From positions 1-64,000 of the forward strand of contig JAUCBJ010000852.1 of the NCBI GenBank assembly GCA_032718475.1: 64,000 nt of DNA, given 5' to 3'. The DNA is from Nemertoderma westbladi (taxonomy: Eukaryota > Animalia > Xenacoelomorpha). Position numbers and translations under genes: made by a program. The notes under the pieces are model-generated. The model saw nothing but the letters and a program-made list of their open reading frames with translations, was not told the origin of the DNA and made no database searches. This document shows, in pieces, positions 50,537 to 54,003 of this stretch (positions within the stretch are counted from its first letter, which is position 1; every line of letters begins with the position of its first letter).

Positions 50537-50652
50537 CTGGTTCCTTCCGAGCACTCATTGGCCAGCGCCCTGGCAACTAAAGTTTTACCAGTTCCGGGTG
50601 GGCCGTAGAATATACAACCGCGTGGCGGATCCATATCGAACGTGGTATAAAC
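50537..50652 (-). CDS. ATAD2: ATAD2-family exon (Walker A)
   Basis: [41 protein letters not shown](R)|GTAA. Confidence 0.95.
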
Positions 50653-53600
50653 CTGGAGGAACGAATATATTAGTTAGAATAAACCTGGAGGAACGAATAT
50701 ATTAGTTAGAATAAACCTGGAGGAACGAATATATTAGTTAGAATAAACCTGGAGGAACGAATATATTAGTTAGAATAAACCTGGAGGAACGAATATATTA
50801 GTTAGAATAAACCTGGAGGAACGAATATATTAGTTAGAATAAACCTGGAGGAACGAATATATTAGTTAGAATAAACCTGGAGGAACGAATATATTAGTTA
50901 GAATAAACCTGGAGGAACGAATATATTAGTTAGAATAAACCTGGAGGAACGAATATATTAGTTAGAATAAACCTGGAGGAACGAATATATTAGTTAGAAT
51001 AAACCTGGAGGAACGAATATATTAGTTAGAATAAACCTGGAGGAACGAATATATTAGTTAGAATAAACCTGGAGGAACGAATATATTAGTTAGAATAAAC
51101 CTGGAGGAACGAATATATTAGTTAGAATAAACCTGGAGGAACGAATATATTAGTTAGAATAAACCTGGAGGAACGAATATATTAGTTAGAATAAACCTGG
51201 AGGAACGAATATATTAGTTAGAATAAACCTGGAGGAACGAATATATTAGTTAGAATAAACCTGGAGGAACGAATATATTAGTTAGAATAAACCTGGAGGA
51301 ACGAATATATTAGTTAGAATAAACCTGGAGGAACGAATATATTAGTTAGAATAAACCTGGAGGAACGAATATATTAGTTAGAATAAACCTGGAGGAACGA
51401 ATATATTAGTTAGAATAAACCTGGAGGAACGAATATATTAGTTAGAATAAACCTGGAGGAACGAATATATTAGTTAGAATAAACCTGGAGGAACGAATAT
51501 ATTAGTTAGAATAAACCTGGAGGAACGAATATATTAGTTAGAATAAACCTGGAGGAACGAATATATTAGTTAGAATAAACCTGGAGGAACGAATATATTA
51601 GTTAGAATAAACCTGGAGGAACGAATATATTAGTTAGAATAAACCTGGAGGAACGAATATATTAGTTAGAATAAACCTGGAGGAACGAATATATTAGTTA
51701 GAATAAACCTGGAGGAACGAATATATTAGTTAGAATAAACCTGGAGGAACGAATATATTAGTTAGAATAAACCTGGAGGAACGAATATATTAGTTAGAAT
51801 AAACCTGGAGGAACGAATATATTAGTTAGAATAAACCTGGAGGAACGAATATATTAGTTAGAATAAACCTGGAGGAACGAATATATTAGTTAGAATAAAC
51901 CTGGAGGAACGAATATATTAGTTAGAATAAACCTGGAGGAACGAATATATTAGTTAGAATAAACCTGGAGGAACGAATATATTAGTTAGAATAAACCTGG
52001 AGGAACGAATATATTAGTTAGAATAAACCTGGAGGAACGAATATATTAGTTAGAATAAACCTGGAGGAACGAATATATTAGTTAGAATAAACCTGGAGGA
52101 ACGAATATATTAGTTAGAATAAACCTGGAGGAACGAATATATTAGTTAGAATAAACCTGGAGGAACGAATATATTAGTTAGAATAAACCTGGAGGAACGA
52201 ATATATTAGTTAGAATAAACCTGGAGGAACGAATATATTAGTTAGAATAAACCTGGAGGAACGAATATATTAGTTAGAATAAACCTGGAGGAACGAATAT
52301 ATTAGTTAGAATAAACCTGGAGGAACGAATATATTAGTTAGAATAAACCTGGAGGAACGAATATATTAGTTAGAATAAACCTGGAGGAACGAATATATTA
52401 GTTAGAATAAACCTGGAGGAACGAATATATTAGTTAGAATAAACCTGGAGGAACGAATATATTAGTTAGAATAAACCTGGAGGAACGAATATATTAGTTA
52501 GAATAAACCTGGAGGAACGAATATATTAGTTAGAATAAACCTGGAGGAACGAATATATTAGTTAGAATAAACCTGGAGGAACGAATATATTAGTTAGAAT
52601 AAACCTGGAGGAACGAATATATTAGTTAGAATAAACCTGGAGGAACGAATATATTAGTTAGAATAAACCTGGAGGAACGAATATATTAGTTAGAATAAAC
52701 CTGGAGGAACGAATATATTAGTTAGAATAAACCTGGAGGAACGAATATATTAGTTAGAATAAACCTGGAGGAACGAATATATTAGTTAGAATAAACCTGG
52801 AGGAACGAATATATTAGTTAGAATAAACCTGGAGGAACGAATATATTAGTTAGAATAAACCTGGAGGAACGAATATATTAGTTAGAATAAACCTGGAGGA
52901 ACGAATATATTAGTTAGAATAAACCTGGAGGAACGAATATATTAGTTAGAATAAACCTGGAGGAACGAATATATTAGTTAGAATAAACCTGGAGGAACGA
53001 ATATATTAGTTAGAATAAACCTGGAGGAACGAATATATTAGTTAGAATAAACCTGGAGGAACGAATATATTAGTTAGAATAAACCTGGAGGAACGAATAT
53101 ATTAGTTAGAATAAACCTGGAGGAACGAATATATTAGTTAGAATAAACCTGGAGGAACGAATATATTAGTTAGAATAAACCTGGAGGAACGAATATATTA
53201 GTTAGAATAAACCTGGAGGAACGAATATATTAGTTAGAATAAACCTGGAGGAACGAATATATTAGTTAGAATAAACCTGGAGGAACGAATATATTAGTTA
53301 GAATAAACCTGGAGGAACGAATATATTAGTTAGAATAAACCTGGAGGAACGAATATATTAGTTAGAATAAACCTGGAGGAACGAATATATTAGTTAGAAT
53401 AAACCTGGAGGAACGAATATATTAGTTAGAATAAACCTGGAGGAACGAATATATTAGTTAGAATAAACCTGGAGGAACGAATATATTAGTTAGAATAAAC
53501 CTGGAGGAACGAATATATTAGTTAGAATAAACCTGGAGGAACGAATATATTAGTTAGAATAAACCTGGAGGAACGAATATATTAGTTAGAATAAACCTGG

Positions 53601-54003
53601 AGGAACGAATATATTAGTTAGAATAAACCTGGAGGAACGAATATATTAGTTAGAATAAACCTGGAGGAACGAATATATTAGTTAGAATAAACCTGGAGGA
53701 ACGAATATATTAGTTAGAATAAACCTGGAGGAACGAATATATTAGTTAGAATAAACCTGGAGGAACGAATATATTAGTTAGAATAAACCTGGAGGAACGA
53801 ATATATTAGTTAGAATAAACCTGGAGGAACGAATATATTAGTTAGAATAAACCTGGAGGAACGAATATATTAGTTAGAATAAACCTGGAGGAACGAATAT
53901 ATTAGTTAGAATAAACCTGGAGGAACGAATATATTAGTTAGAATAAACCTGGAGGAACGAATATATTAGTTAGAATAAACCTGGAGGAACGAATATATTA
54001 GAA
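50647..54003 (-). repeat. 32-bp apparently invariant intronic satellite (~105 units) = branch-like motif + pyrimidine tract + acceptor AG + first 6 nt of exon
   Basis: Minus unit TCTAACTAATATATTCGTTCCTCCAG|GTTTAT; the last unit is the true acceptor of exon 50652-50537. Confidence 0.96.

Follow-up and report, generated by a model that had tools for sequence, protein, structure and literature searches.

The closest described relatives of the locus reported here are tandem repeats that span an intron/exon boundary. In amphioxus, minisatellite-like duplications of such boundaries were named "mirages" (PMC3087553), and splicing was reported there to proceed without interference; they include an acceptor-side case, BflGb6, with 6 and 3 units, and mirages in PGBD5 and troponin C were added later (PMC3902484, excerpt). 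In humans, boundary VNTRs on the donor side are listed in the available part of PMC1557585 for F7 intron 7 (37 bp), IFI6/6-16, CBS intron 13, LMNB2 and PDGF, some of them being leaky, while the donor-side VNTR of ABCA7 intron 18 ranges from ~12 to 427 units and its length affects splicing, according to the excerpted text of PMC5954066. Splice-site juxtaposition is also the hallmark of Drosophila ratchet points, which, in the portion of PMC8605326 used here, depend on beating a cryptic exon's donor; in Bx, a weakened ratchet donor loses this competition altogether. As to the choice between competing sites, an exon-centric proximity rule was described for human splice sites flanking introns of >250 nt, with the opposite rule for short introns (PMC9225289, in the extract consulted).

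The window analysed here comprises 64,000 nucleotides of the Nemertoderma westbladi genome (contig JAUCBJ010000852.1, positions 1 to 64,000), in which an ATAD2-like gene on the minus strand carries one array of acceptors and, two introns away, one array of donors. The exon A region was present in 5 of the 8 sequencing runs found (3 studies), and 4 of these 5 were compared, as assembled contigs, over 50040–50690; X1 and X2 derive from one sample, and X1–X3 are genomic-type runs from 2 samples, while X4 was read as a transcriptome from its exact intron skips. The features are given below in the order of transcription, with their basis in brackets and a slash for each splice junction.

54082 to 54641, minus strand: ATAD2 exon A, 560 nt, acidic/Ser-rich part and start of the AAA domain, donor GAG/GTAGGC, phase 0 (tblastn, HMM, X4 contig end)
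53981 to 54081, minus strand: unique 5' part of the A-B intron, 101 nt, ending in the first acceptor, which has CTAAT only (sequence)
50647 to 54001, minus strand: acceptor array, 104 identical 32-nt units, 105 acceptors (repeat finder, pattern counts, runs X1–X3)
50537 to 50652, minus strand: exon B, 116 nt, Walker A, donor CAG/GTAATTAT (Pfam AAA, X4 contig)
50218 to 50536, minus strand: ordinary GT-AG intron B-C, 319 nt (exact skip in X4)
50052 to 50217, minus strand: exon C, 166 nt, Walker B, closed by the first donor of the donor array (Pfam AAA, X4 contig)
47387 to 50087, minus strand: donor array with a 46-nt unit made of the end of exon C and a GTGAGT donor (repeat finder, pattern count)
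47126 to 47304, minus strand: exon D, 179 nt, second half of the AAA domain, donor AAG/GTAAGT (Pfam AAA, tblastn, X4 contig end)

The assignment of the gene to ATAD2 in the first-pass annotation agreed with the homologue, tblastn and profile matches, by which it is ATAD2-like. Residues 98–186 of exon A matched 16 proteins (160 candidates), 8 of which are called ATAD2 or ATAD2-like by their source, and the best named matches to this segment were bivalve proteins (62–66% identity). Exons were searched by tblastn with 8 of the 16 homologues and with a profile of the 14 that exceed 900 aa, which located four ATAD2 exons in the window (profile positions 219–555 of 1349) and no further ones in the 47 kb downstream and 9 kb upstream within it. 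Pfam AAA is matched by each exon from B to D, and exons A–D joined give 339 codons with 0 stops and canonical splice sites, the 5' boundary of exon A (54641) being placed from the sequence only. The base composition of exon A (66% GC, GC3 0.81) differs from that of exons B–D (43–53% GC, GC3 0.40–0.50).

Tandem Repeats Finder described 50647–54001 as a repeat of period 32 with 104.8 copies and 100% matches. Pattern counts located 105 CCAG/GTTTAT sites on the minus strand, 104 of 104 spacings being exactly 32 nt, and a 20-nt acceptor pattern had 105 matches in the window vs. 0.01 expected by chance; both approaches thus bear out the tandem acceptors noted on first pass, as well as the remark that all of them read AG/GT (105/105). 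The unit consists of 26 intron nt followed by 6 nt from the start of exon B, and every one of the 104 full units contains the branch-like motifs CTAAC (branch A at −22) and CTAAT (−18) and 10 pyrimidines in the 12 positions ahead of CAG, whereas its only GT dinucleotides are those of GTTTAT and GTTCCT. All 104 full units are identical, with 0 differences over 3328 bases, and the 95% upper bound on divergence is 0.09% per site. The array had been described as ~105 identical 3' splice sites, of which the number of acceptors stands; identity over the full unit is limited to 104, since CTAAC is missing from the acceptor furthest upstream (53980), which diverges from the other units upstream of position −21. 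The A-B intron (54081–50653) measures 3429 nt, 3328 of them array, and 101 nt lead to the first acceptor, in line with the proposed growth of a ~100-nt intron to 3.43 kb; this 101-nt unique part likely represents the ancestral intron. Because exon A ends in phase 0, every acceptor except the last one opens the reading V-Y-S-N-stop, with the stop at codon 5 (checked for n = 1, 2, 3, 4, and 104). Masking of the decoys by RNA structure was also considered; predicted folding energies, which come without a shuffle control, were −8.5 kcal/mol for 3 units and −23.6 kcal/mol for 6 units, and Rfam gave 0 matches in 45700–56000.

X1, X2, and X3 all cover the B-C intron, and in each of them the cycle of 32 words that corresponds to the acceptor unit was assembled at high depth (1019, 2372.6, and 4406.9, respectively, vs. 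single-copy depths of 5.41, 36.5, and ~25). The resulting ratios of 188 (X1), 65 (X2), and 176 (X3) stand against 104 units in the assembly, and they do not prove length polymorphism because X1 and X2, from one sample, differ threefold. The donor cycle, the contigs of which were fragmented in X2, gave ratios of 43 (X1) and 45 (X3), where the mean multiplicity within the window is 36. Its comparison with the acceptor cycle yields acceptor/donor depth ratios of 4.4 (X1) and 3.9 (X3). Both exceed the 2.9 of the assembly, so over-expansion in the assembly can be dismissed. Flanking-site differences from the window show that X1 and X2 represent other haplotypes, whereas three contigs of X3 match the window without any difference, and the assembly may derive from X3. 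X2 further holds variant acceptor units (61-nt pieces, depth 93), so perfect identity of the units is not universal. That the array, or its perfect identity, was created by assembly or polishing could be argued from these X2 variants and from the 0 differences in 3328 bases, whereas up to 4 positions in 127 nt distinguish the flanking alleles; against this, the cycle is held at high depth by 3 of 3 genomic-type runs, two of them from other haplotypes, with acceptor/donor ratios exceeding that of the assembly. The array is present in independent data, and we give this explanation next to no credence. One X2 contig additionally showed, at 50153, an Arg>Ser change in the SERQLR motif (invariant in 16/16 homologues); the same contig lacks 27 nt of intron at 50264.

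In our judgement, the array is an intron/exon-boundary minisatellite of ATAD2, i.e., a mirage in the amphioxus sense, that probably arose as a selectively near-neutral by-product of repeat expansion and is likely passed over by exon definition. Five of six mirage features were found at this locus, namely a head-to-tail minisatellite (period 32, 104.8 copies), a unit that spans the host intron/exon boundary (26 + 6 nt, with the boundary fixed by the X4 contig), cryptic splice signals in the copies (branch motifs, pyrimidine tract, and CAG in 104 units), a properly spliced mRNA that persists (one contig, X4 only), and concerted evolution that spares the boundary unit (104 identical units, the first acceptor differing). 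For the sixth, length instability, there are the ratios of 188, 65, and 176 vs. 104, the first two from one sample. The amphioxus cases (Adh3, BflGb6/BflGb9, troponin C, PGBD5), as far as the excerpts of PMC3087553 and PMC3902484 describe them, share with the array the tandem boundary copies, on the acceptor side in BflGb6, the cryptic AG and GT signals, the persistence of a normal mRNA and a homogenised interior next to a divergent boundary unit. Unlike them, the present locus has 105 copies (3–6 in BflGb6), full identity of 104 units (81–100% identity in amphioxus), only 6 exon nt per unit and both an acceptor and a donor array in one gene, two introns apart. The first-pass annotation knew of no description at this scale; boundary repeats as such are on record, in the portions of the sources consulted, as amphioxus mirages (PMC3087553, PMC3902484) and as human boundary VNTRs. 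Our literature search, which covered titles and abstract openings, returned no acceptor array of this size, and titles and abstract openings on ATAD2 contained nothing on this locus. The type of repeat is already known, and the present case is notable for its size, its homogeneity, and the pairing of acceptor and donor arrays.

The composition of the first copy hints at how the array may have formed. It has a 28-nt core, and the 32-nt unit is the same core with CTAA doubled, which fits an initial 28-nt duplication across the acceptor, followed by a 4-nt CTAA slip that would have produced the 32-nt unit and its second branch motif, and then by rapid expansion and homogenisation. The 0 differences in 3328 bases vs. 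1.5% in the donor array point to recent or fast turnover.

The use of the splice sites was read from one spliced contig of X4 (2208 nt, depth 921), which omits exactly the 319-nt B-C intron and whose loose ends continue beyond exon B into the end of exon A and beyond exon C into the start of exon D; there is therefore a transcript that uses the last acceptor and the first donor. This evidence consists of one contig from one run, and contigs drop rare forms, while decay would hide any use of decoys. The spliced A-B-C-D form was not seen in X1–X3. X4 had no contig on the single array unit compared (50656–50690), in which respect contigs show presence, not absence; being from a different sample than the DNA runs, X4 may carry an allele with few units. 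Of the array's acceptors only the last had been considered productive, and both the stop behind each decoy checked and the choice of the last copy in the X4 contig speak for this.

A truncated or silent copy of the gene could accumulate arrays free of selection. Such a copy might be suspected from the presence of just four exons, with no others over the 47 kb downstream and the 9 kb upstream that the window covers, and from the X2 contig with Arg>Ser in a motif invariant in 16/16 homologues. We nevertheless hold it to be very unlikely, given the 339 codons that run without a stop between canonical splice sites, the match of the X4 contig to exons B and C with one difference, which is synonymous, and the appearance of X3 as one diploid locus (allele depths of 9 + 16 vs. 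a flank of 26). By its length, the X4 contig also reaches ~417 nt further than exon D and, at its other end, ~770 nt further than exon A (30 letters per end were read), so that more exons probably lie outside the window and an intron of >47 kb probably follows exon D; as the contig continues and no further ATAD2 exon is found in 47 kb, a very long intron is implied.

Last acceptor and first donor are the two choices that yield the shortest exons, as exon definition predicts, and tolerance through exon definition, one of two options raised on first pass, fits the X4 contig. Mechanistically, U1 bound to the strong donor of exon B (U1 match 10/11) would recruit U2AF/U2 to the closest acceptor on its upstream side, the last copy, and the same exon-centred rule would pick the first donor for exon C. 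The A-B intron would then be removed in one step, and stray decoy products would meet an early stop and likely be lost via nonsense-mediated decay. Several points weigh against this scheme. The first acceptor lies only 101 nt from the donor of exon A, for which reason intron definition would favour it, and it is transcribed 3.3 kb before the last one. Moreover, the part of PMC9225289 available to us states that under exon definition the upstream preference among competing acceptors is significantly reduced, and for long/long exons it is not clearly reversed. By analogy, tolerance might also be less than full, as human IFI6 (6-16), CBS, and ABCA7 use some of their decoys, according to the excerpts consulted. 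With the human boundary VNTRs (PMC1557585, in part) the locus shares identical pseudo sites beside the real one and the use of the site that gives the shortest exon, yet these are all donor-side with 5–25 copies, unlike the acceptor array; under the scanning model proposed for F7 the first site should win, and this model fails for the acceptor array, where the last of 105 is used.

If decoys were instead used regularly, transcripts spliced to internal acceptors would decay, and the number of units would lower the productive ATAD2 mRNA. We think this unlikely, although every decoy is a complete acceptor that leads to a stop and the depth ratios of 65–188 leave room for length variation; the productive form reached a depth of 921 in X4 (contig depth being a poor measure of expression), and the span of ratios includes a threefold difference between two runs of one sample (188 vs. 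65). A precedent is offered by the ABCA7 VNTR (PMC5954066, excerpt), likewise a long repeat bearing splice sites, in which retention of one unit by use of the next one gives an out-of-frame transcript with a premature stop and splicing varies with VNTR length; unlike the present array it is donor-side, and a length effect on splicing was shown there. Should repeat number affect ATAD2 output after all, this would be the acceptor-side counterpart of ABCA7. The stronger version, in which the array acts as both splice-site ratchet and dial, with frequent use of decoys, partial rescue by re-splicing, destruction of the rest, and repeat number setting the output of ATAD2, seems very doubtful to us.

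Rescue by re-splicing leads to the recursive-splicing ladder that the first-pass annotation had put forward. Exon A would be joined to an internal unit, and the regenerated GAG/GTTTAT would serve as a donor again, step after step, up to the last acceptor. This idea draws on AG/GT at every acceptor (105/105), on the report that poor regenerated sites can re-splice in the absence of the exon junction complex (PMC8184009, as excerpted), on the statement that AGGT sites with dual donor/acceptor use have below-average strength and show enrichment in tandem repeats (PMC10809524, as excerpted), and on the fact that a spliced end product cannot separate one step from several. Of four features of recursive sites examined, three failed, the exception being the AG/GT juxtaposition. 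The regenerated donor is not strong: by a plain count over 11 positions of a U1 consensus (not MaxEntScan), GAG/GTTTAT matches at 5/11, with 1 of 4 at +3..+6, so the donor is as weak as first stated, whereas the four real donors of the gene score 7–10 of 11, the competing donor of exon B scores 10, and 68 of 183 GTs (37%) in the non-array gene region score ≥5, i.e., are equal or better. Nor does a cryptic exon closed by a weaker donor exist, as the unit offers only GTTTAT and GTTCCT and the next real donor has 10/11. A long intron in need of stepwise removal is likewise lacking; 3328 of its 3429 nt are array, and without the array it would measure 101 nt and need no ratchet. The productive A/B junction has the same 9-mer and hence would be exposed to re-splicing too. 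A step of 32 nt leaves ~10 nt from the donor to the branch point, which is generally too short for splicing. We thus find the ladder highly improbable, its donor being at background level. AG/GT is a common acceptor context, and here it opens a Val codon. Conservation of this Val as the source of AG/GT was considered and holds only partly: 15 of the 16 homologues match the pattern, and the first residue of exon B is Ile in 8 of them, Val in 6, and Leu in one.

Described recursive and dual-specific sites can be compared as well. Drosophila ratchet points (Ubx, Bx, kuz; PMC8605326, PMC8184009, both in part) resemble the array in their AG/GT juxtaposition, and they combine a conserved, strong donor with a long intron and with a cryptic exon whose own donor is weaker. 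Here, in contrast, the regenerated donor is at background level and the sole downstream donor, that of exon B, is stronger, which is the situation in which the Bx ratchet donor, once weakened below the competing exon donor, gave way to exon inclusion (PMC8605326, same excerpt). The dual-specific repeats of human UBC and VCX3A (PMC10809524, excerpt) also have AGGT in each tandem unit, but they are coding, and splicing between units was observed there, unlike the units here, which are intronic with stops and of which acceptor use was seen for the last copy only (one contig) and donor use for none, in contig data that would miss rare events.

The donor array, reported on first pass as lying two introns from the acceptor array in the same gene, was confirmed with 58 donor copies in 46-nt units, GTGAGT being present in 52, and with 1.5% substitutions per site; it is a direct match to the human donor-side boundary VNTRs, as far as the extract of PMC1557585 goes. 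Variants common to many of its units sit outside donor positions +1..+6 and recur with some periodicity. Selection that knocks out decoy donors was considered, since 6 of 18 distinct variants fall at donor +1..+6 (P = 0.02, post hoc), and was rejected: widened to −3..+6, the count is still 6 of 18 with P = 0.12, 5 of the 6 occur in one copy each, and one makes the donor stronger. The window as a whole is repeat-prone, its 10 larger tandem arrays making up 24% of it. Of these, 2 span splice sites vs. 0.044 expected by uniform placement (P ~0.001, a crude and post hoc estimate), and the origin or survival of boundary-spanning arrays may therefore be biased beyond what the near-neutral model explains.

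The value of the locus lies in its uniformity. With 104 identical complete acceptors, site strength is removed as a variable, which makes the array a natural test system. The choice of the last copy pits exon definition against intron definition and first-come co-transcriptional splicing, because the first acceptor is 101 nt from the upstream donor and transcribed 3.3 kb earlier, and the donor array two introns on provides a mirror test within one transcript.

Upstream of exon A (55981–60116), nested tandem duplications of ~1.3 kb (95% identity) and 330–390 nt (78–82% identity) were recorded. On the other side of the gene, an 82-nt inverted repeat pair (45942–46021 and 46875–46955, 93% identity), which resembles a non-autonomous DNA transposon, flanks ~850 nt downstream of exon D. 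From 47126 down to 1, the implied long intron holds a 7.1-kb satellite with a 16-bp unit (38507–45645), transposons, and a viral element. The latter (32250–34500, plus strand) comprises three adjacent frames that match Pfam Flu_PB1 (E = 8e−51, 6.5e−12, and 4e−05); going by the sequence, it is a broken endogenous orthomyxovirus-like element with an influenza-type PB1 polymerase, probably situated inside the long intron after exon D. An intact 795-aa frame at 35265–37652 is transposon-like, with no Pfam match. Close to the start of the window, 624–3248 holds fragments that, judged by eye, we take to be polymerase-B-like. A stretch with a 281-aa frame and its neighbour occurs twice within 15683–18297, ~1.2 kb apart and with identical translation, and a piggyBac-type DDE_Tnp_1_7 match was found at 26646–27335, with a similar-looking frame near 10.7–12.4 kb (10723–12379).
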